Of a stretch of 24,059 nt of DNA, positions 2-18,873 are shown piece by piece. The stretch lies in contig CAZPKD010000002.1 in NCBI GenBank assembly GCA_964587115.1, positions 1-24,059 of the forward strand, given 5' to 3'. The position numbers and the translations under genes were made by a program. Positions within the stretch are counted from its first letter, which is position 1; every line of letters starts with the position of its first letter. Origin of the DNA: an uncultured Gammaproteobacteria bacterium (GTDB lineage Bacteria > Patescibacteriota > Microgenomatia > UBA1406 > GWC2-37-13). The notes beneath the pieces are model-generated. The model had not been told where the DNA came from and made no database searches. It saw nothing but the letters and a program-made list of their open reading frames with translations.

Positions 2-94
2 TTTCTCAATACTTTTTATTCTAAAAATAACTTTCCTGATAAATTGAGTAACCGTCAAATTTTTACCAGTCTTGTCTTTAATTGGTAAATCCAT
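2..94 (-). CDS. 5' fragment of a gene running off the left edge (MDLPIKDKTGKNLTVTQFIRKVIFRIKSIEK...), product unknown
   Basis: Translated by hand: ATG at 94 opens 31 codons with no stop before the window edge. A TATAAT (108-103, minus strand) lies 8 nt upstream, mirroring the divergent patatin promoter. Confidence 0.55.
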   Translation of the reverse strand, partial: MDLPIKDKTGKNLTVTQFIRKVIFRIKSIEK

Positions 95-124
95 ATAATG
101 ATATTATAATATAATTGAAATTAT

Positions 125-973
125 ATGAAACTTTTTTCTCTTCCTAAAGTCGGTCTAGCCTTAGGTGGCGGTGGCCCCAAAGGGTTAACCCATATAGGGG
201 TTATTAAAGTTCTAGAAAAGAACAAAATTCCCATCGACTATATTAGTGGGACAAGTATTGGTTCTTTGGTTGGTGGCCTATATGCGGCTACCAAAGATAT
301 TAAATTAATTGAGCGAATTGCTCTTGACAATAACTGGCGCGAGCTTGGAGGTTTATTTTTAGATCCCACCTTTAGACTAGGATTTATTCAGGGAGAAAAA
401 ATAAAGAAATTTATTAAAAAATATATCGGTGACATTGACTTTAAGGACCTAAAGATTCCTTTTTCTACTACCGGAACTGACCTTAAGACCGGTAATTTGG
501 TCGTAATCAACCGTGGAAAAGTGGCTGAGGCAATCAGAATTAGTATTTCTATCCCAGTTTTATTCAAACCCGTAGAAAAAGACGGTCGGATTTTAGTTGA
601 TGGAGGCCTATCTGCTCCAGTTCCGGTCGAGGTAGTTAAAAAAATGGGGGCCCAATTTATTGTCGGTGTTGATCTATATAACGATTATTCTGATAGAAAG
701 ATTGGATTGACCGATATTCCCTATGACTCGGTTAATATTTTACTTCACAACTTAGGCAAAAAAGATACGGAAATGGCCGATATAACCATATCGCCTAAAA
801 CATCGACTTTAGGATGGGGCAAGTTCTTTTCACAAAAAGGCAGTCTTGAAGGAATTCGTTTTGGCGAAGAAGCCACGGAAAAAATTATTCCTAGATTAAA
901 GGTCCTTTTAGCTCAAAAAAGAACCACTAATTTTTTTGCCAATTTGTTTAATTTATTTAAAAAGAAGGTTTGA
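125..973 (+). CDS. Patatin-like phospholipase (RssA/NTE-type)
   Basis: Glycine-rich GGGGPKG, nucleophile motif GTSIG (GxSxG) and catalytic DGG motif (LVDGGL). Confidence 0.92.
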   Translation: MKLFSLPKVGLALGGGGPKGLTHIGVIKVLEKNKIPIDYISGTSIGSLVGGLYAATKDIKLIERIALDNNWRELGGLFLDPTFRLGFIQGEKIKKFIKKYIGDIDFKDLKIPFSTTGTDLKTGNLVVINRGKVAEAIRISISIPVLFKPVEKDGRILVDGGLSAPVPVEVVKKMGAQFIVGVDLYNDYSDRKIGLTDIPYDSVNILLHNLGKKDTEMADITISPKTSTLGWGKFFSQKGSLEGIRFGEEATEKIIPRLKVLLAQKRTTNFFANLFNLFKKKV

Positions 974-981
974 TTTCAACC

Positions 982-2748
982 TCAATCGTTATTATCACCA
1001 ACTTCTTCAAGAAAGCGTGACCTACTTGCTTCAATCCGCCTACCAAATATAAACCGGCGTCTGGCATAAGTAATATAAAGACGTTTTTTCGCGCGCGTTA
1101 CCCCCACATAAAAAAGCCTTCTTTCTTCTTCTAACTGAAAATGATCATCGACCGATCTGGCATGAGGAAGAATTCCTTCCTCTACTCCAACTATAAAAAC
1201 ATATGGAAACTCTAGTCCCTTGGCTTGATGAAGTGTCATCAGTTTTATACCATGATAGTTGTGTCCTAGTTTTTTTTCTCCTTCAAAATATTCTGACTCC
1301 ACTAGGGCAATTTGTTCAAGAAACTCAGTTAATTTTGGATAGTTAATGGCAACAGATTTTAGTTCTTTAATATTTTCCAATCTCGAGTAATCTTCTTCCT
1401 CAGATGGATTATATAAGTTAAGATAACCGGTCGCCGCAAATATCTCTTCCATTAATTGGTCACTCTTTTTGTCTTCTGGCTGGTTTTTTCTATTTTGAAA
1501 ATACTTTTTAAAGGCTTCATATTTTCTTTTCCCAATTTTTTTTACTCGCTCTAATGAAACTTGATCGGTTGGATGAATAAGTAATCTCAAATAAGCCAAA
1601 ACATCTTTTATCTCTTTTCTTTCGTAAAAACGAGTCCCTCCAATTAAAATATATGGAATTCCATAGTGCAAAAAAACTTCCTCAATAATCCTTGATTGAA
1701 CATTGGTCCGATACAAAATAGCCGTATTTTCCTGATCGTCTAAGCGAATCGTCTCTTCGGCAATAAAAACAGCCTCATCTTCCTCATTTTGAGCTTGATA
1801 ATAAACCACCTCTTCACCCTCATCATTCCGAGTAAAAAGATTTAAGATTGGGTGAGTTTCGTTTTTTGAAATTACTTTATAAGCAAAGTCAAGAATTTTT
1901 TGAGTTGATCGATAGTTTTCTTCAAGATAAAACATTTTTGCCTTGGGAAAATCTTCTTTAAACTTTTCCAAATTGTTAATATCGGCTCCCCGCCATGAAT
2001 AGATGCTCTGTGAAAAATCACCTACGACGGTTACTTTTTTATGCTTCTCTCCTAAAAGTTTTATCAATACATACTGGGCATAATTAGTATCCTGGAACTC
2101 ATCTACCAAAAAATGTTTAAATTTATCTTGTATCGCATCCAAAACTATTGGTTTTTTTAAGAAAAGATCAATTGTTTTGACAATCAAATCATCAAAATCA
2201 AGAGCTTTGTTTTTTTCTAGTTGTTTTTGGTAATCTTGATAGACTTTAAAAGTTGTCAGGGCGTTATGGTCCGTAAAAAGTCTTGCGTACTGTAATGGTT
2301 TTATAAGTTGATTTTTAGCCCCAGAAATTTGATTTAGAAAATATCCAGGAGAATATTTATTTATCTGTCTTTTTTTAAGAATTTCCTTAATTAAAGCTAA
2401 CTGGTCCTGCTCGTCATAGATAATAAAGTCATTATCAAGATCGATTTGCAGCGCATAGCGACGTAAAATCCTAACACATAAAGAATGGAAGGTGCCGACA
2501 AATCCTAAACCAACTTTAAGGTTTTTACTTATTCTTTCTTTCATTTCATTGGCGGCCTTATTAGTAAAGGTAATCATAATAATCGAAGAAGGTTTTACTT
2601 GTTTATTTTTTATTAAATAGAGCACTTTATAAACCAAAACTCTTGTTTTCCCTGAACCAGCCCCGGCCAAAATTATCGAAGGATTATCAGTACAAGAAAC
2701 AGCTTTTTGTTGTTGTTTGTTTAAGTGGTTGAATATCCCGTCTTTCAT
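982..2748 (-). CDS. pcrA: ATP-dependent SF1A DNA helicase PcrA/UvrD (compact form)
   Basis: Motifs AGAGSGKT (I), TFTNKAA (Ia), GTFHS, VDEFQD (II), VGDFSQSIYSWRGA (III), ENYRS (IV), TLHQAKGLEF (V) and EERRLFYVGVTRA (VI). Confidence 0.95.
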   Translation of the reverse strand: MKDGIFNHLNKQQQKAVSCTDNPSIILAGAGSGKTRVLVYKVLYLIKNKQVKPSSIIMITFTNKAANEMKERISKNLKVGLGFVGTFHSLCVRILRRYALQIDLDNDFIIYDEQDQLALIKEILKKRQINKYSPGYFLNQISGAKNQLIKPLQYARLFTDHNALTTFKVYQDYQKQLEKNKALDFDDLIVKTIDLFLKKPIVLDAIQDKFKHFLVDEFQDTNYAQYVLIKLLGEKHKKVTVVGDFSQSIYSWRGADINNLEKFKEDFPKAKMFYLEENYRSTQKILDFAYKVISKNETHPILNLFTRNDEGEEVVYYQAQNEEDEAVFIAEETIRLDDQENTAILYRTNVQSRIIEEVFLHYGIPYILIGGTRFYERKEIKDVLAYLRLLIHPTDQVSLERVKKIGKRKYEAFKKYFQNRKNQPEDKKSDQLMEEIFAATGYLNLYNPSEEEDYSRLENIKELKSVAINYPKLTEFLEQIALVESEYFEGEKKLGHNYHGIKLMTLHQAKGLEFPYVFIVGVEEGILPHARSVDDHFQLEEERRLFYVGVTRAKKRLYITYARRRFIFGRRIEASRSRFLEEVGDNND

Positions 2749-2766
2749 AAGTTATAATACTAGCAT
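2749..2766. promoter_or_regulatory. Back-to-back, probably leaderless sigma70 -10 elements for pcrA and tpiA
   Basis: Plus strand: TATAAT 2753-2758, 8 nt before ATG 2767. Minus strand: extended -10 TGcTAGTAT (2765-2757), 8 nt before ATG 2748. No SD or room for one. Confidence 0.65.
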
Positions 2767-3420
2767 ATGAAATACTTTATCGCCAACTGGAAGGCTAATA
2801 AAAACCTTTCCCAAACCCAAGATTATATAAACAAATTTCTCGAGATCGTTGGAATGTTAGAACAATCTAAAGTCATAATCTGCCCTCCTTATCCCCTAAT
2901 ATCATCTATTAAAGAAAAAATCGTTGGAAAAAACAATCTTTACGTCGGTTCTCAAGATCTTTCCGTATTTGAAGAGGGTTCTTATACTGGTGAAGTAACG
3001 GCAAAAACACTCCAAGGACTGGTTGATTTTGTTATCCTTGGTCATAGCGAAAGACGAAAAAATTTTAATGAAACTCAAGAAACCATAGCTAAAAAAGTGA
3101 CCTTAGCTAAAAAATATCAGATTGAGTCAATCATCTGTATAAGAAATATTGAAGATTGGCAAGCCATAAGGGATCAGGCAAAGATTGTCGCTTATGAACC
3201 GGTAGCCGCCATTGGTACGGGAATGAATGAAGATCCAAAAAAAGTCACTGATTTCAAAAAAACCCTTAACCTAAAACCGGAAACTGTCTTTATATACGGT
3301 GGCAGCGTTAAAAGCGATAATGCCAATAGCTATCTAGGAACAAAAGAAATTGATGGTTTTCTCATCGGAGGAGCTTCCTTAGATCCAGAAAACTTCAAAA
3401 AAATAATTGAGTTGGCCTAA
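2767..3420 (+). CDS. tpiA: Triosephosphate isomerase (short form)
   Basis: ANWK (catalytic Lys), GHSERR (catalytic His), AYEPVAAIGTG (catalytic Glu and loop 6), YGGSV and GFLIGGASL. Confidence 0.95.
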   Translation: MKYFIANWKANKNLSQTQDYINKFLEIVGMLEQSKVIICPPYPLISSIKEKIVGKNNLYVGSQDLSVFEEGSYTGEVTAKTLQGLVDFVILGHSERRKNFNETQETIAKKVTLAKKYQIESIICIRNIEDWQAIRDQAKIVAYEPVAAIGTGMNEDPKKVTDFKKTLNLKPETVFIYGGSVKSDNANSYLGTKEIDGFLIGGASLDPENFKKIIELA

Positions 3421-3422
3421 AT

Positions 3423-4532
3423 ATGAAAAAAAAGTTGACGGTTATCGGCTTAGTTTTTTTTGTGGTTTTATTTCTACTGATAAGGCCTTATTATTTATTT
3501 TTAACTCAAAAAGTTAAAATTTCTCCTTTCAAAACCATATTCTCATTTGATTCTCTGAAAATCTATGATAATCAAGTCAGCATCCTAATACTGGGAATTG
3601 CTGGAGAAAGTCATGACGGTCCCAATCTAAGCGATTTAATTATTGTCGTCAATTATAATCTTGAGACCAATCAATTAACGACAATGGCCGTTCCTCGGGA
3701 TATTTGGAGCGACACCCTAAAAGACAAGATTAATTCTGCTTATGCTTACGGAGCGGAAAAAAATGGTCTACCACTTCGACCCCTTGATGGTTTAAAACTT
3801 GCTAAAGCTGAAATCACAGCTATTTTCGGCAAACCAATTCAGTATGCTACTGTCATCGATTTTGAAAAGTTCAAAAACCTAATCGACTTTTTTGGCGGTA
3901 TAGATGTAAAAGTGACCAATACTTTTGATGATTATGCTTTCCCTATCCCTGAGGAAAAGATAAAAGACCCCTCATGTGGCCATACCGATACTCAGATTAA
4001 GGAATTTACTAATAGTAATCCTACTGAAAAACAAATATGGGATTACTTTCCTTGTCGTTACGAACACATCCATTTTGACGCCGGCATTGTTCATATGGAT
4101 GGCGCTACCGCTTTAAAATTTGTCCGTTCCCGCCATGCTGAAGGTAATGAAGGGAGTGATTTTGCCCGTGGGCAAAGACAACAGCAGGTTATCGTTACCT
4201 TAAAAAATCGTATCCTACAAGAAGTCAAAAGTCTTAATCTAAAAAAGATACAGGCTCTTTACGAAGAACTTGATTTGTTAGTCGTTAGGGATATCACCAA
4301 TCAGCAGCTATCGATTCTTGGGAAAAACATAGTTTTTAAATCTAATTTGAAGCAAAAAGAGATTGTTCTTGATGAAAGTTTCTTTACGGTCCCAAATTAT
4401 GATCTTTATGAGGGCAAGTACGTCCTTATCCCTGAAACAGGCAACTTCAATCAGATACATCAATACATTGAATGTAGCTTAAAAAGCTTATCAAATTGCG
4501 ACTCCTTAAAAAATAAAGGAGAAAATAATTAA
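3423..4532 (+). CDS. LytR-CpsA-Psr (LCP) family glycopolymer transferase
   Basis: N-terminal TM helix, ILILG, SDLIIV, VPRD, KINSAY, IDFEKF..LIDFFGGIDV, ALKFVRSRH and SDFARGQRQQQV. Confidence 0.93.
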   Translation: MKKKLTVIGLVFFVVLFLLIRPYYLFLTQKVKISPFKTIFSFDSLKIYDNQVSILILGIAGESHDGPNLSDLIIVVNYNLETNQLTTMAVPRDIWSDTLKDKINSAYAYGAEKNGLPLRPLDGLKLAKAEITAIFGKPIQYATVIDFEKFKNLIDFFGGIDVKVTNTFDDYAFPIPEEKIKDPSCGHTDTQIKEFTNSNPTEKQIWDYFPCRYEHIHFDAGIVHMDGATALKFVRSRHAEGNEGSDFARGQRQQQVIVTLKNRILQEVKSLNLKKIQALYEELDLLVVRDITNQQLSILGKNIVFKSNLKQKEIVLDESFFTVPNYDLYEGKYVLIPETGNFNQIHQYIECSLKSLSNCDSLKNKGENN

Positions 4533-4964
4533 TACTGAAGCCGCAGTAAATAAAATTAACGAATTATTTATAAATCCCGTTTCTGGCAAGCTTATCACTT
4601 TGGTTGGAGAAATGGACGTATTAACTTGGGCTGTCTGACTAGCCGAACCCTTACCGCTATCTAGAGCTAATATTATTTCCGTTGGACTTGGAGACACCAC
4701 TTCGGTGGGACTAATTTGACTTGTGGTTGGACTTGGTTCGATGGTTGGTGTGATCTCAACCGTTGGAGTAATAGAGACAGTGTTTAAAGCAATCAGTTTG
4801 CTGTAGGTAACAGCCGCAGCTTTAGTTTTTTTAGGAGCGAGACTGGCCGTTTCAACCTCTTCTTCACTAGTAATCACTCGGGTTATGTAAAAAATAGAAC
4901 CGAGGAGAAAAAAAATCATTACCATTAAAACTATAGTAATTAATTTTGGTTTATTATTTCTCAT
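4506..4964 (-). CDS. Membrane protein with Thr/Pro/Ser-rich linker and C-terminal LPETG plus hydrophobic anchor
   Basis: N-terminal TM segment, TPT/SPT-rich middle, LPETG at aa126-130 (4589-4575) followed by 22 mostly hydrophobic residues to the stop. Overlaps the LCP 3' end convergently by 27 bp. Confidence 0.75.
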   Translation of the reverse strand: MRNNKPKLITIVLMVMIFFLLGSIFYITRVITSEEEVETASLAPKKTKAAAVTYSKLIALNTVSITPTVEITPTIEPSPTTSQISPTEVVSPSPTEIILALDSGKGSASQTAQVNTSISPTKVISLPETGFINNSLILFTAASVLIIFSFIF

Positions 4965-4965
4965 A

Positions 4966-5610
4966 TCAATCTCCTAGCCAGCCATCAGTCTGAGAATGAA
5001 GCTGGGCTTCAATCCTTAACTGACCTTGATTACTGGCTACTATATAATTAATGTAATAAATATTTAATTTATTGTCAAAGTCTAAAGTTATATTTTCCGT
5101 TTTCCAGGTATCGGAATTAACTCTAATTCTAGCTCGGTCAGTATCTGTCTCAGATACATTTTCAATTCCAATAATAATACTCTCACCAGATTTAACCGCA
5201 CTTAAGCTCGCCCCAGACATTGGTTCAAAGTTACTATCAAAAATTTTGATACCTTTAGAGTTAATAAAACTAATAATCGGCGTTGGACTAACCTTTGAAG
5301 TTCTTGTTTTTTTCTCAAGATTGGAAAATCCCAGCAGACTGGCTAAACCAAAAAGAGACATAAAAACAACTAATATAATAATGATTAAGTTGTCGGATTT
5401 TTTTACTATTCTTACCGGCTGATCGTTTAAATCTTTAGCTTGCCCTGCTTGAACGGCTATATTTTCCTCGAAATTAGGTATCTTTGGCTTGGTTTTTGTC
5501 CGATTATTTTTTTTCAATAAGTAAATTTCATAGCCTAAAAAACCGAAGGTGACTAAAAAAGCTAGTAGGCTTATTTTATTGATTGATACCAAAAAATAAA
5601 CAATATCCAT
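4966..5610 (-). CDS. Hypothetical membrane protein (two hydrophobic segments, C-terminal beta-rich domain)
   Basis: Hydrophobic aa3-30 and about aa75-95, SPTP linker and alternating beta-strand pattern. Tightly coupled to neighbours, with its own TAGAAT 6 nt before the ATG. Confidence 0.75.
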   Translation of the reverse strand: MDIVYFLVSINKISLLAFLVTFGFLGYEIYLLKKNNRTKTKPKIPNFEENIAVQAGQAKDLNDQPVRIVKKSDNLIIIILVVFMSLFGLASLLGFSNLEKKTRTSKVSPTPIISFINSKGIKIFDSNFEPMSGASLSAVKSGESIIIGIENVSETDTDRARIRVNSDTWKTENITLDFDNKLNIYYINYIVASNQGQLRIEAQLHSQTDGWLGD

Positions 5611-5635
5611 ACTTAAATTCTAGCTTATTTTAAGC

Positions 5636-6895
5636 TTAAAATGCAAGAAGAATCCCTAAACCAAGAATTATCAGACTCCCACTAGCGATTGCCATGGGAA
5701 TAGTGTTGGTCCCTGAAGTTGGTCGAGGAGGAATTGTCGCCGATATCTGAATTGTTTCGGTTGGAGTAATCACGGTTGGACTAGCCTCTGCGGTAGCTGA
5801 ACCTAAAACCTGCTCCCCTGATTTGGCAATGGTAAATTTGCGGACAACCTTAATATCTTGACCGTTAGTATCCTTGGTGGTTAGAGTCATCGTATGACTA
5901 CCGGCTGGTAGTTTTTCATTCAAAGAAAGCTTCCAGAGACCTTCTTTGTCTGCAGTTACTCTAAATGAATAACTCACGGGGGAGTTAATGGTAATAAATA
6001 CATCCGAATTGGGGATAGCCAAACCTTTAATTAAAGGACTTTGGGCAGGAATAATACTATTTTCTTTTGGAAATAAAATCTCAATCTGACCGGTCTTAGA
6101 TTGACTCGTGGCTGATAGGACATTATCTTTCTCACCGAACTTGTAATCATTACCAATAATCAGTGTTTGTGGTAAGGGCCCTAGATTATCGGCATTTGTC
6201 TCAACGTTTGTTTTTAAACCATCCTCGCTAATTATTTCTATTAATCCCGATTCATTTTTTTCAATTGGTCTAATTTTTCCGGATTGAGAGTCGACTACTC
6301 CATTTAGTGGAATCAACCATTCACCGGTCAGTTTAGTTAGGGCGAAAAGAGAGTCGCTGTTTTTAAAGGTTAAAATAACCGCCGCATCGGTTAGAGGTAA
6401 TCCATTACTCTTAATAATTTTTCCATAGGCTGGTTTTAAACTAGCGGTCTGGTTCACACCTGTCGGGGTCTGAAATGAAAAAGATTTTTGATCGGTTTGC
6501 CCAACAACTTGATCTTGGCTAATAATCTTAAAATAATATTTCTTTCCAGATTGCAGATTTTTAATTAAAACATAGTGGTTTAAATATTGACCTTTTTTTC
6601 CGCTAGTATCTCTGTCATCAGAAAAGGTCTGCTTAAGGTCATTTTCTTTTTCACCCAGAATAAGCCAACCTTTTTCTTTTGTGTCGGTTTGCCAATAAAC
6701 ACCGGCCTGATTCGATAAAAGATTAACTACTTTTATCTGGCGGACAGCTTTTTTTGTCGCTCTTGAAGGCAAAGAGCTGGTTTGAAAAAAACGGCTAAGA
6801 ATAAAGATCACCAAAACTAAAATCACCACTAAAACCGGAGTGGGAATTTTTATTGAATTTTGTTGCTGGTTTAAATAATAGCGCGAATAAACCAT
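5636..6895 (-). CDS. Multidomain surface protein: FN3/purple-acid-phosphatase N-terminal-like domain plus Ig-like domains, C-terminal RPTSG plus TM
   Basis: FN3-like pattern (VYWQTD...HYVLIKNLQSGKKYYFKI), a second beta-sandwich (YGKI..NGLPL..AAV...GEWLIPL) and an Ig-like segment (IKGLAIPNSDV...ADKEGLWKL....LPAGSHTMTL). TM segments at both ends. Confidence 0.75.
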   Translation of the reverse strand: MVYSRYYLNQQQNSIKIPTPVLVVILVLVIFILSRFFQTSSLPSRATKKAVRQIKVVNLLSNQAGVYWQTDTKEKGWLILGEKENDLKQTFSDDRDTSGKKGQYLNHYVLIKNLQSGKKYYFKIISQDQVVGQTDQKSFSFQTPTGVNQTASLKPAYGKIIKSNGLPLTDAAVILTFKNSDSLFALTKLTGEWLIPLNGVVDSQSGKIRPIEKNESGLIEIISEDGLKTNVETNADNLGPLPQTLIIGNDYKFGEKDNVLSATSQSKTGQIEILFPKENSIIPAQSPLIKGLAIPNSDVFITINSPVSYSFRVTADKEGLWKLSLNEKLPAGSHTMTLTTKDTNGQDIKVVRKFTIAKSGEQVLGSATAEASPTVITPTETIQISATIPPRPTSGTNTIPMAIASGSLIILGLGILLAF

Positions 6896-6896
6896 A

Positions 6897-7082
6897 TTAA
6901 GGGTTTCTTTGTTTTAATATCTCAAGAACCTGACTATCAATTTTAATATTTTCCACCACAACATACTTGGTGGTTAACCCTTGGTTGGTAGTCGCCTTTA
7001 CTCTGTATATTTCCAGTAAAACCCAGGCAACCACGGTAAAAAATATTGTTAAGGAAATATAAAACAACTCTTTTTGGTTCAT
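6897..7082 (-). CDS. Small single-pass membrane protein downstream of PilO-like gene
   Basis: 61 aa with one TM (LFYISLTIFFTVVAWVLL). 4-bp overlap with the upstream gene and 1-nt gap to the downstream gene. Confidence 0.7.
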   Translation of the reverse strand: MNQKELFYISLTIFFTVVAWVLLEIYRVKATTNQGLTTKYVVVENIKIDSQVLEILKQRNP

Positions 7083-7657
7083 AAATAATATCCTTCGATA
7101 TTCATCTCAATGTTTAATAATCCACTCGTTGAACTTTCTTTTGTATCCCGTCCAATAACGGCACTTTGGACCATTTTTATCCTTCTTTGACTATATAAGT
7201 CTTTGGTTAATTTAACAAAGTCATCAAAGCTCCCTTTAAGAATAACATTAAACACAACTGATTTTAAAGTATCTTCTTTTTGACTTTTTTTAAGATTGAT
7301 ATCGACAATGGTTAATTTATCTATTACAAGATTATTATTTTTAATTGATGAATTCAAATCTTCAAGCAGCTTGTTTACTTGCGGCATTTTAGAAATAGCC
7401 TCCCCAAGGACACTGAGGTTATCACGATTTACCTCCAGTGACGACTGAATCGAGACTAAATTTTGAATTTGTTTTTCAAGAAAAGTATCATCTCTCACTA
7501 AATCGTCAATTTTCTTGTTCGCTTGAAAAATTGACAAAAGGTTTGGTCTAATGACAAAAAATATAAAAAAGGAGAAAATAATTAAAAAAAGGATTGTATA
7601 AGTATAATCAATGGTCTTCTTAGTAAAGATTTTTTTAAACGATAGTTTTTTTTCCAT
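7079..7657 (-). CDS. pilO: Type IV pilus alignment protein PilO-like
   Basis: TM, coiled coil, then a ferredoxin-like pattern (LKGSFDDFVKLTKDLYSQRRIKMV). Lies directly after a PilN-like gene. Confidence 0.7.
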   Translation of the reverse strand: MEKKLSFKKIFTKKTIDYTYTILFLIIFSFFIFFVIRPNLLSIFQANKKIDDLVRDDTFLEKQIQNLVSIQSSLEVNRDNLSVLGEAISKMPQVNKLLEDLNSSIKNNNLVIDKLTIVDINLKKSQKEDTLKSVVFNVILKGSFDDFVKLTKDLYSQRRIKMVQSAVIGRDTKESSTSGLLNIEMNIEGYYL

Positions 7658-7659
7658 GT

Positions 7660-8181
7660 TTAATTTAGTTTTGATAACTCTATCTCAAAACTCAGGCCTA
7701 CGTCTATTTTTTTTAATGATTTAAGATTAATGTTGGCAAACTTTTTGTCAGTTTTAAGCCTCTGATAAAAACTCTGAATTAACGAGCCATTATCTCCAAA
7801 ACCCTCGAGCTTCATTGAGTTGTCGGTAACCGTTAGTTTCGATAAATACAATTTGTCTGGGAAGATGGTTGAAAGATAATTGAGAATGTCAAGAAACTTA
7901 TCTTGTCTTTCAATAATGTGCTTTACTTCCTTTATCTGAAAATCAGTTGTCTTAGCCTCAACAAATAACGGTTGGGTTACTTCAATTATTTCCTTTTTTT
8001 GCCCCACTGAATCTTGATAATCAACTATCTCCTGATCTACTTTAAACTTATAAAAAAACACTCCAATAACAATAATCTGCGTAATAATCAAAATATACCT
8101 CAAATAAGAGAGGGCAAAATATATTAGCTTATCGGTTAAACTTTCTTTTTTCCTCGATAAAAGGTTAATTTTATATTTCAT
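7660..8181 (-). CDS. pilN: Type IV pilus alignment protein PilN-like
   Basis: N-terminal INLL motif (PilM-binding INLLP-like), TM, coiled coil, and PilN core (LSTIFPDKLYLSKLTV...LEGFG....IQSFYQRLK..KKFANI). Confidence 0.75.
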   Translation of the reverse strand: MKYKINLLSRKKESLTDKLIYFALSYLRYILIITQIIVIGVFFYKFKVDQEIVDYQDSVGQKKEIIEVTQPLFVEAKTTDFQIKEVKHIIERQDKFLDILNYLSTIFPDKLYLSKLTVTDNSMKLEGFGDNGSLIQSFYQRLKTDKKFANINLKSLKKIDVGLSFEIELSKLN

Positions 8182-8429
8182 TTTTTGTTCAAAAATTTAG
8201 CCACAAGAGATTTTAACCTGGCGGCTTTATTTTTGTGAATAACCTTTTTTTTATAAGCCTTATCAATTTTTGAATAGGCTTTTTTAACTGAACTAATTAA
8301 ATTTTCCTTTTTTTTACTGTTTTTGACATCTTTAATAGCTTTTTTATACTCTTTTTCATAAACAGTGTTTCTTTTAGTTCTTTTGACATCTTGTCTTAGT
8401 TTCTTTTTAGCTGACTTAATTATTGGCAT
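8178..8429 (-). CDS. rpsT: 30S ribosomal protein bS20
   Basis: MPIIKSAKKKLRQ N-terminus, IDKA.KK.VIHKNKAARLKS C-terminal signature, 83 aa and highly basic. Confidence 0.95.
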   Translation of the reverse strand: MPIIKSAKKKLRQDVKRTKRNTVYEKEYKKAIKDVKNSKKKENLISSVKKAYSKIDKAYKKKVIHKNKAARLKSLVAKFLNKK

Positions 8430-8436
8430 GAAATAA

Positions 8437-8461
8437 CACCTCCTCTCAAATAGTATTGAGA
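8437..8461 (-). promoter_or_regulatory. Strong Shine-Dalgarno for rpsT with adjacent 6-bp hairpin
   Basis: AGGAGGTG (8444-8437) lies 7 nt before ATG 8429. An inverted repeat TCTCAA-N6-TTGAGA (8444-8461) has the -10-like TACTAT as its loop. Confidence 0.75.
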
Positions 8462-8462
8462 A

Positions 8463-8918
8463 TTAATAATCCTTGTTAAAAACTTTTTCGCCATAATCTC
8501 CACTAAAATTCAGTGATAATTGTATTTTTCCCACCACCTCATGATAAACACAACTTCCAGATGAACAAGTTCCCAGAGTTATTTTTTTTTCAATATCAGA
8601 TTCTCCTTCTTGGAGAGAAATTCTTGCCATAACTCCTTGTAATCCTTGTTCAGCCGTTTTATATGATAGCTGATACTCAATTGCGGTTGTCCCTTTTGGA
8701 ATATTGTTAATAGTCAAAATTACTTCTTTACCTGAAGTTGTTTTCTCTAATGATGCTTTAACTGAAGCATCGACGGTTGGAATTAAAACCTCAGTTGGAA
8801 AATTATCTTCACTTACTTTTTCTGTATTTCCGTTACTCTTACTAAAAATAATAAAGGCAACCAAAACTATCCCCAGAATCACTAAACCAACAATGATGAT
8901 TTTGTTTTTATTTTTCAT
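8463..8918 (-). CDS. Hypothetical single-pass membrane protein with LGTCSSGSC motif
   Basis: N-terminal TM, beta-rich ectodomain and a closely spaced Cys pair. Sits between glyQS and rpsT on the same strand. Confidence 0.75.
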   Translation of the reverse strand: MKNKNKIIIVGLVILGIVLVAFIIFSKSNGNTEKVSEDNFPTEVLIPTVDASVKASLEKTTSGKEVILTINNIPKGTTAIEYQLSYKTAEQGLQGVMARISLQEGESDIEKKITLGTCSSGSCVYHEVVGKIQLSLNFSGDYGEKVFNKDY

Positions 8919-8930
8919 AAAAAAAACAAC

Positions 8931-10199
8931 TTATAAATGATCGGTTAAGTATTTTTCTAACTGATCAACTTTTAATCTAATCTGTGTCATTGAATCACGA
9001 TCGCGAACCGTAAGAGTATCATCTTCTAATGTCTGAAAATCAACCGTAACGCAAAAAGGGGTACCAATTTCATCTTGAGAAAAATAACGTTTTCCGATGT
9101 TTCCTCGATCATCCCAGTTGACTTGAAGTCTATTTTTTAATTCCTTATAAATATTCCAAGCTTTTTCTTTTAATTTTGGTTTATTAGCTAATAAAGGGAA
9201 TATGGCTGCTTTATACGGAGCAATTTTAGGGTTTAGCTTTAGGACTACCCTACCCTCAATTTCTTTATAAGCGTCTATTAAGAAGAAGAGTGTTGCTCGA
9301 TCGACTCCGCCTGAGGTTTCAATTACCCAAGGAGTATATTCTTCATTCGTGTCTTTATCTTTATAGGTTAATTTATGTTTGGATAGGTCATAATCGCCCC
9401 GATGATGAATCCCCTCAAACTCAGACCAACCAAAAGGAGCGTCGTATTCTATGTCGGTAGCAAATCTAGCATAGTGGGCTCTTTTTTCGGGTTCGTGGTC
9501 GTGAAATCTTAACTTATTCTTATTTATACCCAATGACTGATACCAAGACAATCTTTGACTTTTCCAGTATTCAAAATTTTCAAGGCCGCTTTTTTCATCG
9601 GGCTTAATAAAGTATTCTAATTCCATTTGTTCAAATTCGCGACTACGGAAAGTAAAGTTCCCCGGAGTAATCTCATCTCTGAAGGCTTTACCAATTTGGG
9701 CAATTCCAAAAGGAATCTTAACCCGTGACGAATCGACAATATTTTTAAAATTAACAAAAACCCCTTGGGTAATTTCACCCCTAAGATAAGATTTCTGTTT
9801 TGGCTCAACTGTTCCTAGGAGCACTTCAACCATCAGATTAAAAGTTTTTACTTCAGTCCAACTGTTTTTTCCTTGGTGTTCTTGATTGTGATCAGAAAGC
9901 ATCTTTTTATCATCAGCCTTAATCCTTTTATGACAGACTTTACACTCGATTAACGGATCGGTAAAGGCTTTAAGATGGCCAGACCTATCCCAGACGGTCG
10001 GATTCATGACAATAGCCGCATCAATACCAACAACATCTTCTCTGGAATAAACCAGACTCTTCCACCATTCTCTTTTTATGTTGTTTTTAAGCTCTGTTCC
10101 CAATGGACCATAGTCCCAAAAACCAGCAAAACCACCATAGATTTCACTCCCAGGATATATAAAACCTCTTCTTTTGCATAAAGAAACAATTTTATCCAT
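8931..10199 (-). CDS. glyQS: Glycine--tRNA ligase, alpha2 (homodimeric) type
   Basis: KRRGFIYPGSEIYGG, YGPLG, YLRGEIT, motif 2 AFRDEITP..FTFRSREFEQME, motif 3 IETSGGVDR and HGTP anticodon domain (IGKRYFSQDEIGTPFCVTVD). Confidence 0.95.
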   Translation of the reverse strand: MDKIVSLCKRRGFIYPGSEIYGGFAGFWDYGPLGTELKNNIKREWWKSLVYSREDVVGIDAAIVMNPTVWDRSGHLKAFTDPLIECKVCHKRIKADDKKMLSDHNQEHQGKNSWTEVKTFNLMVEVLLGTVEPKQKSYLRGEITQGVFVNFKNIVDSSRVKIPFGIAQIGKAFRDEITPGNFTFRSREFEQMELEYFIKPDEKSGLENFEYWKSQRLSWYQSLGINKNKLRFHDHEPEKRAHYARFATDIEYDAPFGWSEFEGIHHRGDYDLSKHKLTYKDKDTNEEYTPWVIETSGGVDRATLFFLIDAYKEIEGRVVLKLNPKIAPYKAAIFPLLANKPKLKEKAWNIYKELKNRLQVNWDDRGNIGKRYFSQDEIGTPFCVTVDFQTLEDDTLTVRDRDSMTQIRLKVDQLEKYLTDHL

Positions 10200-10248
10200 A
10201 AAACTTATTTTTTAATAAAAATATTACAGATTTTAACCTGTGCTTTCA

Positions 10249-10773
10249 TTATATAACAAAGTTAGGCAGTTTTTCACGAATTAACTCTTCTAAAAAGAGC
10301 TTCTGTTCATCAAAAGCCATGTTTCTTTTGGAGTAACCGAATATTGATAAGAACTTATTAATATAGGTTGTCATATTAACCTGAGTAATGTTATTTTTTG
10401 ATATATCAATTAATACTTTCTTAGTCAAATTGTAGGCGGTAATTTCTTTTTGTTCTTCAGGTAATAGTCGATCAAGAATAAAAAATAAATTATACAGAAA
10501 GCCAATTTTTCTCTCATCTTTTTTTATATTAGAAAAGGCGCTAATAAGGTCTGTTTGTTGAAGATATAGATAATCACCTTTTTTATTAATAACCACTTTA
10601 ATTAAGTTTCCGGTCTGAATATGGGGAAGACGACGACTGGTAATTTTTTTTACTCCTTTAGCTAAAATTCTTGTTTTGCCTAATTCTTTAGTAAATAGAG
10701 TTAAAATTAAGTCTTTTTCCAATAAAGAACGTTTCATCAAAACAATCGCCTCTGTTTTTATGGTTTTCCGCAT
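10249..10773 (-). CDS. recO: DNA repair protein RecO (short)
   Basis: RecO_N OB-fold pattern (EAIVL...LEKDLILTLFTKELGK..ILAKGVKK..SRR). Overlaps the upstream peptidase by 16 bp. Confidence 0.85.
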   Translation of the reverse strand: MRKTIKTEAIVLMKRSLLEKDLILTLFTKELGKTRILAKGVKKITSRRLPHIQTGNLIKVVINKKGDYLYLQQTDLISAFSNIKKDERKIGFLYNLFFILDRLLPEEQKEITAYNLTKKVLIDISKNNITQVNMTTYINKFLSIFGYSKRNMAFDEQKLFLEELIREKLPNFVI

Positions 10774-11837
10774 AGATAAAGAAGTTCTTTGAGAATCAGA
10801 TAATAATCATTAAGGCTTTTCATATCAACCCACTCATTGTCAGTGTGAAGACCATATCCAATCGGCCCAAACTCAACACCAGAACAGCCGACTTCGTCAT
10901 AATGTCTTAAGTCAGAAGCACCATTTTTTCTGATTACTTTTGGAACCTTTTTGATTATTTTTTTAGAAACTTCCTGAATTAACTTAATATATGGATTGTT
11001 TTTTTCTGTAAAATGGACTGGTTCATTCTCACTGATAGTAATTTTTGACTCGGGCGGTGCAAATTTTCTTAATTTAGTAAGAATATTTTTAGCGTCGCTC
11101 GGAACATAACGTATATCACAAAAAATACTACAATCATCGGCCACTTTATTAAATGTTTTATTGGTACTTTCAATTCGCGCCACATTTATAGTTGTTTCCC
11201 AAACCGCTTTTTTTGGAACCGGATACTGTGTTCTAATTTTGTTAAGAATTTTGTTAGCTTTTATTATCGCATTATCTCCTTGCCATGGATAAGCACCATG
11301 AGCAGTTTTTCCAAAAACAGTATACTTTATCCAGATAATTCCTTTTGCTTCATTACCTATATCGAAGTTTGTCTGCTCCCCAACCAAAACAAAATCACTT
11401 CTCACTCCCTGTTCTACCTGATATTTGGTTCCGTTGAACCCACCTATTTCTTCATCAGTAACAATTTGAAGTCCTATCGGAACCGTTAGCTTTTTAGCCA
11501 TCTCCTTAAAAGCTAATATTTCAGCAACCGCAGCTCCCTTCATGTCAAAAGCACCCCGACCATATAGTCGATTATTCTTCTCTTTTGGTATATATTGACC
11601 ATCTTTGGCCGAAACAACATCTAAATGGGCGTTAAAAAGCATTTTAAACTTTCTTGGCCGCGTCTTAGTATTGTAAGCTAAAAAACTGGGAATACCATCT
11701 TTTATAAATTCTTCTAGGTGATATTCTTTTACCTCATTCTTTGCCAAAGCAATTGCCTCCGTTAGTCCCTTTGAATTATCGTTTGTTGACCGAACAGATA
11801 TTAGTTTTTTTGTCAGAGATAATATTTTGTTAAACAT
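10758..11837 (-). CDS. M20 family metallopeptidase/deacylase (DapE/ArgE-like)
   Basis: Metal-ligand motifs NAHLDVV, GRGAFDMKG, DEEIGG, VGEQT, HGAYPW and C-terminal LHTDNE. Confidence 0.92.
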   Translation of the reverse strand: MFNKILSLTKKLISVRSTNDNSKGLTEAIALAKNEVKEYHLEEFIKDGIPSFLAYNTKTRPRKFKMLFNAHLDVVSAKDGQYIPKEKNNRLYGRGAFDMKGAAVAEILAFKEMAKKLTVPIGLQIVTDEEIGGFNGTKYQVEQGVRSDFVLVGEQTNFDIGNEAKGIIWIKYTVFGKTAHGAYPWQGDNAIIKANKILNKIRTQYPVPKKAVWETTINVARIESTNKTFNKVADDCSIFCDIRYVPSDAKNILTKLRKFAPPESKITISENEPVHFTEKNNPYIKLIQEVSKKIIKKVPKVIRKNGASDLRHYDEVGCSGVEFGPIGYGLHTDNEWVDMKSLNDYYLILKELLYLCGKP

Positions 11838-12114: not shown

Positions 12115-13944
12115 TTATTTGTTTTTCAGTTCTTTATCAACGGTGAACAAACCATCATAAAGGACTCTTCCATTAAAATCTACTTTAATCTTTTGGTCAT
12201 CAATCCCTGGCTGTTTTTGGATTAATAATTTATAATCCTTGTTGACGAGTGAAGATGGCAATTCATATTTAATGTTAACCGTTGCCTTACCTAAAGGATT
12301 GACAGTTAGAAAGCCTTCAAAAACGGTTTTCCCCAAATCATTATAAGTTTGTACCGGTTTTATCGATCCTTCAAAACTAATTAACTTTGACCCTTGAGGC
12401 ACATAAATTCTAACCCAGTTTCTTAGCGTTGCGTTCAGACATAATCCTCCCCTTTCTAGATTACAGTCAGAGTGAGGATATGGATTCCGATAATCAATGA
12501 TTACTTCACGAGTAATTTTATTAGATGATAATTTTGCCTTAGAAGTAATTGTTTCGGAAACAAATAAATTGGCTTTAGCACCGGCAAAGTTAACATTGTT
12601 GACGTGTAAATAATCTCCGTCATATTTTTTAATTGAGCCGGCAAAATTAAGCTTTTCTGCCGCTGTTTGTAGATTTTTGTCGGTAAAATACAATAAAATA
12701 TGTTTTTCTTGAAGATTTTTAAACATCTGTTGAGCCAAAGTGCCCCAATATTTTGACGGTGAAAAACCAAGAGCTTTATATAAAAGCTCATACATCAATT
12801 CTCCTAAAATTCCCTTACGATTAGTTCTTTCATAGGGAACCGGTCGATCAACCATGTCAAAAAGTTGATATAAAACCTGAGGACAGTCGCATCGACTATC
12901 AATTTTTGAAGAGAAAATAACTCCGCCAGCTTTTGTGTCACCAAAAATAGTTAACATATCAACCAATACCTTTGAATCAAGCATAATAATCCCATCATAG
13001 TCAACTTTAACGTCGCTTAATTTATACAAACTATTAAAAAGCTTAATTGAACTCGGTAGATCTGGAGACAAATTACTATCGCGAATGTAAAATTTATAGA
13101 CTTCCTTATGATAGGTTAAAATCTCTTTAGGAGCTGTGGGATGGGAAGAAATACTGTTGTCTAGGGAATAGATATCATCTGATTTTTGAATCTTTAGTTT
13201 TCCATCCTTGACCTTAAAGATAGCATAGGCGGTTAAAAATCCACCAGTAGCCCGTCTTTCTTTATCGTTTTGAAAAAGTAGTAAGTAGGTTTGTTCTTTT
13301 TTTGTGCCAAAAATTTCTGGCAGTCTTTTAACCAGAGGTTTAGCGTCAACAAATAATGAGGCCAAACCAACAAACTGTTCTTTAATATTTACTAGCCTCG
13401 AACGAACAACCGTTTTGCCTAATTTCTCTGGATAACGATTTGGATTGATCTTGGCGATTCTTACTTCTGCTTGATTAATATCTTCTGAAATAACATCAAT
13501 GTTGGATAAAACTTTATCCAGGGTTAATATGGCTGTTTGCAACCTGTCTTCGGACGATCTTTCAACAAACGAAGTTTGACCTTTTTTAAACCCAATCAAA
13601 TCTGCGTAGGGATTAATGGTCTTGACTATCTCTTGTCCTGCCTTAACTAGATAACTACCCGCTTCAACTCCATTCTTAAGATCGGCAAAATAAGGAATAA
13701 AGGATAACCAGTAGACTGATTTTGCTTCCTTTTCCAACAAAGAATACTTCCCAGAAAAAGATTCTAGTTTGGTATTTAAAAGATCAATATCGTTTTTAGA
13801 GAAAGTTTCTTTAAGTTGTTTGGCTTCAGCTATAACTCCGTTGGTCGCTGTCTTTATCTTTATAAACGGCCTAACAATAAAAAAATATCCTAAGATTACT
13901 AATAATAAAATAGCGATAATAATAGTTTTTTGTTTTTTTTTCAT
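12115..13944 (-). CDS. DUF4012-type large single-pass extracytoplasmic protein
   Basis: N-terminal TM, helical stalk, signature LLLFQNxxExRATGGF, RDSNLSPD, DGII.LD and C-terminal beta-sandwich (NWVRIYVPQGSKL...YKLLIQKQPG). Confidence 0.8.
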   Translation of the reverse strand: MKKKQKTIIIAILLLVILGYFFIVRPFIKIKTATNGVIAEAKQLKETFSKNDIDLLNTKLESFSGKYSLLEKEAKSVYWLSFIPYFADLKNGVEAGSYLVKAGQEIVKTINPYADLIGFKKGQTSFVERSSEDRLQTAILTLDKVLSNIDVISEDINQAEVRIAKINPNRYPEKLGKTVVRSRLVNIKEQFVGLASLFVDAKPLVKRLPEIFGTKKEQTYLLLFQNDKERRATGGFLTAYAIFKVKDGKLKIQKSDDIYSLDNSISSHPTAPKEILTYHKEVYKFYIRDSNLSPDLPSSIKLFNSLYKLSDVKVDYDGIIMLDSKVLVDMLTIFGDTKAGGVIFSSKIDSRCDCPQVLYQLFDMVDRPVPYERTNRKGILGELMYELLYKALGFSPSKYWGTLAQQMFKNLQEKHILLYFTDKNLQTAAEKLNFAGSIKKYDGDYLHVNNVNFAGAKANLFVSETITSKAKLSSNKITREVIIDYRNPYPHSDCNLERGGLCLNATLRNWVRIYVPQGSKLISFEGSIKPVQTYNDLGKTVFEGFLTVNPLGKATVNIKYELPSSLVNKDYKLLIQKQPGIDDQKIKVDFNGRVLYDGLFTVDKELKNK

Positions 13945-13947
13945 AAT

Positions 13948-14622
13948 TTAAACAGCTCCACTACCGGTAAGCATAACGATAGGAGTCTTAATGATAATTT
14001 TTAAATCTACTAATAATGATACATTATCAACATAAGAAGCATCAATGGCAATTCTTTTATCAAAATTAATCTCTGATCTTCCGGTTACTTGCCAAAGACC
14101 GGTAATTCCAGGTTTAACAGAAAGAACCTTAGAAACCAATTTTTGAGTATGAGGAAATTTTTTTTGCTGTTCCTTGAGCTCGTCTGGATAATAAGCTCGT
14201 GGCCCAACCAAACTCATTTCTCCCTTAAGAACATTAAAAAACTGAGGTGTCTCATCAATTGAATGCTTGCGGATGAAACGACCAACTTTGGTTACTCGCG
14301 GGTCGTTTCTTAGCTTATAGCTTCCCTGCTGATATTCCCTAAATAGTTTTTTGAAACGCGGATCGTTACGTAAAAGATAATGAGCGTTAACAATCATCGA
14401 GCGAAATTTATACATTTTAAAACGACCGCCATTTTCGCCGACTCTTTCGGGAACATCAGCTAAAATCGGGCCTTTTGAATCAGCTCTTATAATAATGGAG
14501 GTAACTAGATAAACCGGTGAAAAAACAATAAGCAGAAGTATCGAACCGATAATATCGATTAATCTTTTTGTGTATTTGCGATAACCCTTACCTTTAAACA
14601 AATAAAGTAAATTAACGGTCAT
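13948..14622 (-). CDS. Small monotopic phosphoglycosyl transferase (bacterial sugar transferase; PglC/WbaP C-terminal family)
   Basis: KRLIDI membrane segment, RVG..G..FKMYKFRSM, DPRVTKVGRFIRKHSIDETPQFFNVLKGEMSLVGPR (catalytic DE dyad) and PGITGLWQV. Confidence 0.93.
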   Translation of the reverse strand: MTVNLLYLFKGKGYRKYTKRLIDIIGSILLLIVFSPVYLVTSIIIRADSKGPILADVPERVGENGGRFKMYKFRSMIVNAHYLLRNDPRFKKLFREYQQGSYKLRNDPRVTKVGRFIRKHSIDETPQFFNVLKGEMSLVGPRAYYPDELKEQQKKFPHTQKLVSKVLSVKPGITGLWQVTGRSEINFDKRIAIDASYVDNVSLLVDLKIIIKTPIVMLTGSGAV

Positions 14623-14653
14623 TTCTATATTGTATCAAAATTAACTTATGTTT

Positions 14654-15739: not shown

Positions 15740-15747
15740 TTAAGTAA

Positions 15748-18858: not shown

Positions 18859-18873
18859 TAAAAACAAAAACAA

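Follow-up and report, generated by a model that had tools for sequence, protein, structure and literature searches.

Two proteins with LPXTG-like ends encoded behind pilN-pilO

We analyzed a stretch of DNA of 24,059 nucleotides (hereafter the window; contig CAZPKD010000002.1 of assembly GCA_964587115.1) from a member of Candidatus Roizmanbacteria (Microgenomates), a lineage of the candidate phyla radiation (CPR); the host is thus a CPR cell, as the preliminary description of this sequence had supposed. The genes pilN-pilO-p61-p419-p214-p152 form a compact minus-strand row in the window, with adjacent genes overlapping by 4 nt or lying 1-25 nt apart, and the subject of the present work is the C-terminal signal carried by the products of two of these genes. 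The p152 protein (152 amino acids (aa); 4506..4964, minus strand) consists of an N-terminal membrane anchor, a T/P/S-rich disordered linker, an LPETG motif and a 22-aa hydrophobic C-terminus ending in Phe. The p419 protein (419 aa; 5636..6895, minus strand) comprises an N-terminal transmembrane (TM) helix, three beta-sandwich (FN3/Ig-like) domains, a T/P-rich linker, an RPTSG motif and a 24-aa C-terminal helix that also ends in Phe. An LPXTG-type pentapeptide near the C-terminus is present in p152 and, in partial form, in p419, and a hydrophobic membrane-spanning segment follows the motif in both, but neither has the positively charged tail of the LPXTG sorting signal.

For comparison, we used 61 loci from a genome scan with p419, each with 10-kb flanks. 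Gene order over these loci is nearly invariant (DUF4012-RecO-GlyRS-p151-S20-PilN-PilO-p61-p419-p214-p152-LCP<-TpiA<-UvrD, where LCP stands for the LytR-CpsA-Psr family).

The p152 family

The LPETG motif of p152 (aa 126-130; 4575..4589, minus strand; SLPETGFINN across the motif, VISLPETGFINN) is conserved in 41 orthologues, with Pro present in 41/41, Leu in 37/41, Thr, Ala or Ser at P1 in 40/41 and Gly in 37/41. The dominant form in the family is L-P-x-[TAS]-G, and an [LM]Px[TAS]G end occurs on the protein encoded downstream of p214 in 41 loci. Exactly 22 aa follow LPETG in p152 (FINNSLILFTAASVLIIFSFIF and then the stop), with no K, R, H, D or E among them and with Phe as the last residue; counted from the motif Gly, the C-terminal segment begins GFINNSLILF, and it ends ...LIIFSFIF. 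This post-motif segment (4509..4574, minus strand) is made up of a short polar spacer (FINN) and an apolar run of 18 aa that continues up to the last residue, without a basic tail. The distance from the Gly to the end is 22 in all 40 family members in which the motif pattern was found, and conservation extends into the segment itself, namely to F(-14), A(-11), S/A(-4) (41/41), F(-3) and F(-1), with Phe as the last residue in 33 of the 41 proteins.

Upstream of the motif lies the linker (4590..4787, minus strand), which contains a conserved 'PTEIILA' and is 48% T+P+S. At the other end of the protein, a rule-based reading delineates an apolar run at aa 8-27 (4884..4943, minus strand; part of a 21-aa run) that is preceded by MRNNKPK and is probably an uncleaved signal-anchor. 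No globular domain is present in p152, and its orthologues are annotated only as 'hypothetical protein'. Two short conserved motifs stand out in the family, 'K.[KR]A....TY.[KR]..aL' directly after the N-terminal anchor (window positions 4785-4832, aa ~45-60) and 'PTEI[IV]LA' in the middle of the linker (window positions ~4668-4688, aa ~93-99); the two might be strands for docking to the p419 beta-sandwich domains or to the C-terminal domain of p214. A pilin-type polymerization of p152, by a YPKN-like Lys nucleophile combined with LPXTG, was considered and rejected, as the 'TYSK' position is occupied by K in 16 sequences, R in 8 and Q in 1, and there is no folded pilin domain. Furthermore, in about one third of the loci (L005, L006, L008, L009, L011, L013 and others) a single gene of ~205-250 aa stands for p214 and p152, in which the two-TM N-terminus of p214 is joined straight to the T/P linker and the LPxTG C-terminus, with the C-terminal domain of p214 lost.

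A phmmer search with the 40-aa C-terminus of p152 against 1.84 billion representative sequences retrieved 12 proteins at E<=0.001, all belonging to the p152 family and all matched at the extreme C-terminus; with this short query, and hence at low sensitivity, no sign of a widely shared sorting domain was detected. For a metagenome-wide DNA pattern of LPxTG, ~22 codons, Phe and stop, we estimate hundreds to tens of thousands of matches by chance. The Pfam model Gram_pos_anchor (PF00746) scores 13.6 bits on p152, against a cut-off of 20, and aligns the motif and the helix to model positions 3-30 of 43. The alignment ends where the basic tail would start, and therefore we count it in favor of a tail-less sorting signal.

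The p419 family

More than 250 homologues of p419 were found, mostly under the name Candidatus Roizmanbacteria. The RPTSG motif (aa 391-395; 5711..5725, minus strand) corresponds to a family consensus P-P-[VT]-S-G and is the most conserved segment of the protein; it stands, for example, in the context PPVSGGN or RPTSGTN, followed by a C-terminal peptide of the type ...SLIILGLGILLAF. Among 164 distinct sequences of the family, the most common motifs are PPVSG (47), PPTSG (24) and PPVTG (11), and the motif Gly is located 24 residues from the end in 147. A [TV]-S-G-[GFST]-N element is recognizable around the Gly, with SGG in 36 of the 164 sequences, and orthologues from deep branches of the family carry LPKTG or LPDSG. 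Judged by sequence, the p419 motif (PP[VT]SG, sometimes K-x-G) is only loosely LPXTG-like.

In p419 itself, exactly 24 aa follow RPTSG (TNTIPMAIASGSLIILGLGILLAF and then the stop; ...LGILLAF at the end), again without K, R, H, D or E and with Phe in the last position. This segment (5639..5710, minus strand) has no basic tail, shows conserved S(-15), S(-13), G(-8), G(-6) and F(-1), and is modeled as a helix over residues 399-418; among the 164 sequences, G(-8) is retained in 150, G(-6) in 142 and a last Phe in 135. The C-terminal apolar run is 19 aa long, compared with the 18 aa in p152. Column conservation of the C-terminal helix is 0.42, against 0.40-0.42 for the folded domains and 0.23 for the N-terminal TM helix.

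The AlphaFold2 model of p419 (mean predicted local distance difference test (pLDDT) score 77.8) consists of an N-terminal TM helix at aa 19-36 (6788..6841, minus strand), beta-sandwich domains at 53-142, 156-234 and 272-356, a disordered linker at 361-398 that holds the motif, and the C-terminal helix. The T/P-rich part of the linker (aa 361-390; 5726..5815, minus strand) has pLDDT below 50, and the stretch before the motif is 45% T+P+S, against 21% in the rest of the protein, which together with the value for p152 confirms the Thr/Pro-rich runs described before both motifs. Pfam assigns Pur_ac_phosph_N/FN3 and Big_13 domains to p419, and a search of PDB structures with the model returned only generic tandem FN3 domains and adhesin stalks.

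The N-terminal apolar run of p419 is 14 aa long, and a basic start precedes the N-terminal run in both p419 and p152. By the same rule-of-thumb reading of the sequences, neither protein has an A-x-A-type site near the end of the N-terminal helix, so that both N-termini look like anchors. The proposal that both proteins are anchored at both ends is plausible for the precursor, with the N-terminal half of it depending on this reading.

Two variations within the family are worth recording. A deep branch (L044-L047, L050, L052, L054, L063) ends in ...G[VL]xLLL and not in ...LLAF, and has aromatic amino-acid genes downstream instead of p214 and p152. One orthologue (L062:10245-11219) contains LPD[TS]G twice, at a spacing of 10 residues (...TLPDTGDGLTPAPSTLPDSG...).

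Absence of the basic tail

The preliminary description, which read the ends of the two proteins as LPETG plus 22 aa and RPTSG plus 24 aa, Phe-terminal and free of basic residues, is correct in every detail that can be checked, and the feature extends to the families: no member of either has a basic residue after the helix, and the rare K, R or H in the examined examples belongs to the spacer directly after the Gly. Lack of conservation of the motif at a fixed distance from the C-terminus would have spoken against a sorting signal, but the Gly lies 22 residues from the end in 40/40 p152 and 24 residues from the end in 147/164 p419 sequences. Given this conservation of the motif at a fixed C-terminal distance in orthologues, the pattern is far beyond chance.

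The possibility that the tails are missing only by artefact, that is, through premature stops created by assembly error or through stop-codon recoding, deserves attention, given that some CPR lineages recode UGA. We regard this explanation as practically negligible. All three stop codons are in use in both families (TAA 23, TAG 14 and TGA 4 for p152; TAA 28, TAG 16 and TGA 14 for p419), the in-frame continuation beyond the stops is neither basic nor open, the same ends are found in >200 orthologues from many assemblies, and the sequence of p152 is identical in three independent assemblies (JGI 3300037067, Logan SRR13007705 and NCBI GCA_037975375.1). Taken together, these findings refute it.

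Tail-less ends are, furthermore, specific to the p152 and p419 families in this region. Among 1192 non-nested open reading frames of >=120 aa from all sampled loci, 10 other proteins have a C-terminal apolar run; 9 of these have K/R tails and one has a glycine-rich low-complexity end. Apart from the two families, no canonical basic-tailed LPXTG proteins were found in the ~1.2 Mb of related loci, all of which represent the same region of the genome.

A sortase gene outside the window

No sortase gene is present in the window, as originally reported: both a hidden Markov model (HMM) of the sortase of this lineage and a TLxTC regular expression gave negative results. A nearly identical genome does encode a sortase: contig JBAWSS010000045.1 (430 kb; locus L067) of GCA_037975375.1 is 99.45% identical to window positions 8-10973. 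On this contig, a sortase gene adjoins a gene for a class A penicillin-binding protein (PBP). Its position translates to window coordinates of about -6.2 to -5.5 kb, which places it ~5.5 kb to the left of the first window base and ~10 kb from p152. The same linkage recurs in relatives. Two loci (L011 and L031) contain a canonical sortase (GHS...TLITC...R) ~9 kb downstream of p419, and in an 85% relative the sortase and p419 share one 348-kb contig with the order ...p419-p214-p138-LCP<-TIM<-UvrD-patatin<-hexapep-VanW<-SBP-675aa-sortase-PBP1. In 11 cases, this relative and 10 further ones, the longest contigs of the sortase match and of the p419 match are of equal size. Directly upstream of the sortase, with a gap of 1-2 nt, lies p676, a gene for a protein of ~676 aa that belongs to no Pfam or NCBIfam family (L067:4365-6395, minus strand; L064:7972-9999, plus strand); it also occupies the downstream edge in 10 additional loci, and the sortase comes next in all 5 loci that reach beyond it. 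The neighborhood of the sortase is oriented toward the cell wall, with LCP, VanW/PG_binding_4 and PBP genes.

The protein has a sortase domain with the His-Cys-Arg triad. It scores 87.9 bits with PF04203 and 62 with TIGR01076 (cut-off 39); GHS is present in 120/120 and xLxTC in 117/120 homologues, and Arg235 is invariant in an alignment of 32 sequences. A search with the L011/L031 sortase reported 2000 matches at E<=0.001, and the best 120 of these are 66-100% identical to the query and carry Roizmanbacteria or Microgenomates names; by this measure, the sortase family is better conserved than p419. None of the curated class cut-offs of NCBIfam (class C to F, SrtD, GN) is reached (class C, 69.7 against 160; E, 54.8; D, 49.3; F, 20.2), the PDB sortases of classes A, C, D and E all show a similar distance to it (19-30% identity), and the structural model has a sortase fold at low confidence (pLDDT 62.5) that does not resolve the class. 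The family has been reported as near ubiquitous in Microgenomates, with its substrates not described (Méheust et al. 2019, PMC6744442).

Separately, the PilO-like protein (window positions 7079-7657; L065:9239-9817) gives a weak match to the Roizmanbacteria sortase HMM (E 0.002-0.006, 14-16 bits), which probably involves only the N-terminal TM region.

Interpretation of the C-terminal signals

We consider it somewhat more probable than not that p152 is a sortase substrate with a two-part signal, consisting of motif and helix, and that p419 is probably one as well, with a more degenerate motif of the PPxSG type; the case for a sorting signal is strong for p152 and weaker for p419. Both proteins would be inserted by Sec with an N-in signal-anchor. 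The ectodomain of each, together with its T/P-rich linker and (L)Px[TS]G motif, would lie on the outside, while the last 18-19 residues would be embedded in the membrane and the C-terminal Phe would come to lie on the cytoplasmic side. This predicted topology puts the motifs on the outer face, where sortase works. The single conserved Roizmanbacteria sortase would cleave after T/S and join the protein to peptidoglycan, which would leave the product fixed in the membrane by its N-terminus and to the wall by its C-terminus. The function ascribed to the basic tail is to retain the precursor in the membrane until sortase has acted (PMC4617865, PMC3237569). In p152 and p419 the tail might be dispensable, given that the N-terminal anchor would already keep the precursor from escaping; an uncleaved anchor would make retention by the tail needless and would therefore be a simple reason for its loss. 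In the absence of the tail, the conserved helix could be a recognition element for the sortase. Because the genes follow pilN-pilO in one compact row, such tethers would belong to a type IV pilus-like machine, as its envelope part in a cell without an outer membrane, and the wall-oriented neighbors (LCP, VanW/PG-binding protein, PBP1, sortase) are compatible with a wall-spanning pilus scaffold.

The observations on which this interpretation draws are the conservation of motif and spacing, the absence of the tail, the presence and synteny of a sortase and the extracytoplasmic architecture of both proteins, while cleavage, wall attachment, the retaining role of the N-terminal anchor and the link to the pilus are what we infer. 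Several further points weigh against it. All published definitions of the signal include the basic tail (PMC3237569, PMC4155245, PMC4617865), and the curated LPXTG models fail on both proteins, with PF00746 below threshold and no match to TIGR01167 at E<=1. The p419 motif mostly lacks Leu and has Ser at P1, and some members lack even the Pro (IKKAG, LAKSG). Conservation of the C-terminal helices at the level of individual residues is unusual for a sorting peptide that is to be discarded and fits a permanent anchor equally well. Finally, the linkage of the sortase gene is weak evidence of function because the whole ~40-kb region is syntenic across the lineage.

Accordingly, the C-terminal helices may instead be permanent membrane anchors, with p152 and p419 forming extracytoplasmic loops held at both ends, an explanation that we find less probable but take seriously as the main rival; the same holds for its detailed version, in which the helices pack against the TM helices of PilN, PilO, p61 and p214 and Pro-x-[TS]-Gly acts as a hinge or helix cap. 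In p419, the C-terminal helix equals the folded domains in conservation and exceeds the N-terminal TM helix almost twofold, and both helices contain small residues with a 7-residue spacing (S-15/G-8 and S-13/G-6 in p419, A-11/S-4 in p152), a typical pattern of helix packing for which partners would be at hand, as five co-oriented genes nearby encode membrane-spanning proteins. The missing tail, the missing LPXTG model match and the frequent departure of the p419 motif from LPXTG also find a natural place here. What permanent anchoring leaves unexplained is the exact L-P-x-T-G of p152, with its invariant Pro and its fixed distance from the end, in a lineage that has a sortase, as well as the LPKTG and LPDSG of deep-branch p419. 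A stop-transfer helix without a flanking positive charge would, moreover, be atypical, whereas other proteins with C-terminal TM helices from the same genomes have K/R tails, and conservation of the helix does not by itself speak against cleavage: according to the passage of PMC11326707 that cites it, the C-peptide of Streptococcus gordonii, a membrane remnant of sortase cleavage, is sensed in the membrane and can have a function of its own.

A different processing enzyme for one or both signals, of the rhomboid type (rhombosortase-like), exosortase/archaeosortase-like or undescribed, appears improbable, less so for p419 than for p152. The [TV]-S-G-[GFST]-N element of p419 loosely resembles the SGGS of GlyGly-CTERM and is followed by a helix with small residues, ...AIASGS...GLG... 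(PMC3237569), and since the helices of p152 and p419 differ, the two need not share one enzyme. A basic cluster, however, belongs to all described systems of the rhomboid or exosortase type (PMC3237569); at E<=1, neither protein is matched by any sorting-domain model, including those for GlyGly-CTERM and PEP-CTERM; no rhomboid, exosortase or CPBP gene was found in ~44 kb of the same genome or in the flanks of relatives; and the sortase is present, with its exact motif on p152. The original suggestion that a divergent sortase or another transpeptidase or protease handles the signal thus narrows to its first part, the favored candidate being the PF04203 sortase that stays below the class cut-offs and lies ~5.5 kb outside the window; that it cleaves p152 and p419 is inferred only.

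p152 and p419 are probably the first plausible substrates of the sortase of this lineage; if sortase processing is correct, they would be the first named substrates of an enzyme reported as near ubiquitous in Microgenomates. Tentatively, the model may be extended to Roizmanbacteria in general and perhaps to Microgenomates as a whole: a two-part signal on N-anchored proteins would allow sortase to produce covalent membrane-to-wall staples, with p152 as a bare T/P-rich tether and p419 as a three-domain stalk, that form the wall-spanning part of a PilN/PilO pilus machine. Substrates of this kind would give an uncultured lineage a concrete enzyme-substrate pair that can be put to the test. They would also mean that sorting can proceed without the basic tail, which would then not be the universal requirement that textbooks make of it, and they would hint at the way in which a pilus platform is fastened to the wall in a monoderm-like CPR envelope. 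In current databases the p152 family is listed as hypothetical, and its score stays below the thresholds of the curated LPXTG models. If the signals are left uncleaved, p152 and p419 are still two conserved, sharply delimited envelope proteins that are anchored at both ends and attached to PilN/PilO, and they would caution against concluding sortase processing from an LPxTG and a helix. That CPR bacteria have sortases is already known; our search of the literature found neither a conserved signal of the LPxTG type without a tail on N-anchored proteins from a pilN-pilO row nor candidate sortase substrates of Microgenomates.

Comparison with known systems

The canonical LPXTG signal (PF00746; TIGR01167) shares with p152 and p419 the LPxTG near the C-terminus, the Pro/Thr-rich stretch before it, the short spacer and ~18-aa apolar helix after it and the sortase in the genome. 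It differs in that p152 and p419 have no basic tail and end on the last residue of the helix, usually Phe, in the conserved sequence of this helix, in the uncleaved-looking N-terminal anchor in place of a signal peptide, in the HMM scores below threshold and in the CPR host.

Some sortases accept Pro in place of the Leu, as in the PPKTG/SPKTG motifs of the substrates of Clostridioides difficile SrtB. The p419 consensus PP[VT][ST]G resembles these (S/P)PxTG signals (PMC4155245), but in p419 the P1 residue is mostly Ser and the tail is missing, and the Roizmanbacteria sortase is not class B by the NCBIfam models.

The GlyGly-CTERM/rhombosortase, PEP-CTERM/exosortase and PGF-CTERM/archaeosortase systems (PMC3237569) are similar in having a short motif and a TM helix that are conserved as a unit at the end of extracytoplasmic proteins, and p419 adds its S-G-G-like element. 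Unlike the ends described here, these signals have a basic cluster as a third part, are found on numerous unrelated proteins of one genome and are processed by a polytopic membrane enzyme; p152 and p419 lack the basic cluster and represent only two families, and the only candidate enzyme found is a sortase. For GlyGly-CTERM/rhombosortase in particular, there is no TIGR03501 match at E<=1, no basic cluster and no rhomboid gene in ~44 kb of the same genome, and for PEP-CTERM/PGF-CTERM the motif, the basic cluster and the model matches are all absent.

The S. gordonii C-peptide could account, by analogy only, for a conserved helix in a cleaved signal, but no sensor kinase or comparable partner is known for p152 or p419. 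In Actinomyces oris, an LCP enzyme reportedly modifies an LPXTG protein before its anchoring by sortase (GspA-LcpA-SrtA). The present locus is similar to the extent that the gene next to that of a T/S/P-rich LPxTG protein encodes an LCP enzyme and that the lineage has a sortase of the housekeeping type; unlike in that system, the adjacency occurs within a wholly syntenic region, the genes are convergent and not co-transcribed, and glycosylation is a guess here. Finally, the Pam pilus operon of CPR bacteria (PamC/D/R; bioRxiv 10.64898/2026.03.03.709456) encodes envelope proteins that combine Ig/FnIII-like domains with a TM helix at the C-terminus and have been proposed as pilus tethers; it differs in lying by the ATP synthase genes and in that no LPxTG is mentioned there. 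Identity of the p152/p419 row with the Pam operon was rejected, as the locus is different.

Other genes and features of the region

Upstream of p419, the row contains the gene for the PilN-like protein (7660..8181, minus strand; PF05137, 39.5 bits against a cut-off of 22.8; INLL within the N-terminus), that for the PilO-like protein (7079..7657, minus strand; PF04350, 28.7 bits against a cut-off of 22) and p61, which encodes a 61-aa single-TM protein (6897..7082, minus strand) and is always located between the PilO-like gene and p419 (62 sources). Both the PilN-like and the PilO-like protein exceed the Pfam gathering score and have a single N-terminal TM helix. No pilM, pilB or pilC gene is present in the window. 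Between p419 and p152 lies p214 (214 aa; 4966..5610, minus strand), which has a two-TM N-terminus and a ~110-aa extracytoplasmic domain that ends EAQLHS..DGWLG[DE] and is put outside by a K-rich loop between the two TM helices. This domain has no family match; the idea of p214 as a hidden sortase-like enzyme was rejected on the same ground and for its lack of Cys. The LCP glycopolymer transferase gene (3423..4532, plus strand; PF03816, 100 bits) is convergent with the row, its 3' end overlapping that of p152 by 27 nt (4506-4532), and this synteny is kept in 39 sources. A functional link of LCP and p152, for example a modification of the T/S-rich linker, is only a guess.

Scans for tRNA genes and Rfam families found none in window positions 1-24059, and these scans together with promoter and terminator scans of the region returned nothing relevant. 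Between RecO/M20 and the ribosomal protein genes, window positions 12115-18873 hold an envelope glycopolymer cluster with genes for a DUF4012 protein, a Bac_transf sugar transferase, an NTP_transferase and three glycosyltransferases. From 4506 to its right end, the window has genes on the minus strand only, and the cumulative GC skew drops steadily to -2.0 (window positions 1-24059); the strand bias and the skew are consistent with a single replichore. Many representative metagenome-assembled genomes with a Roizmanbacteria-type locus (L006, L010, L015, L017-L021, L023 and others; L050) are evidently mislabelled, either as 'uncultured Gammaproteobacteria bacterium' (third party annotation (TPA) assemblies) or as 'Weeksellaceae'.

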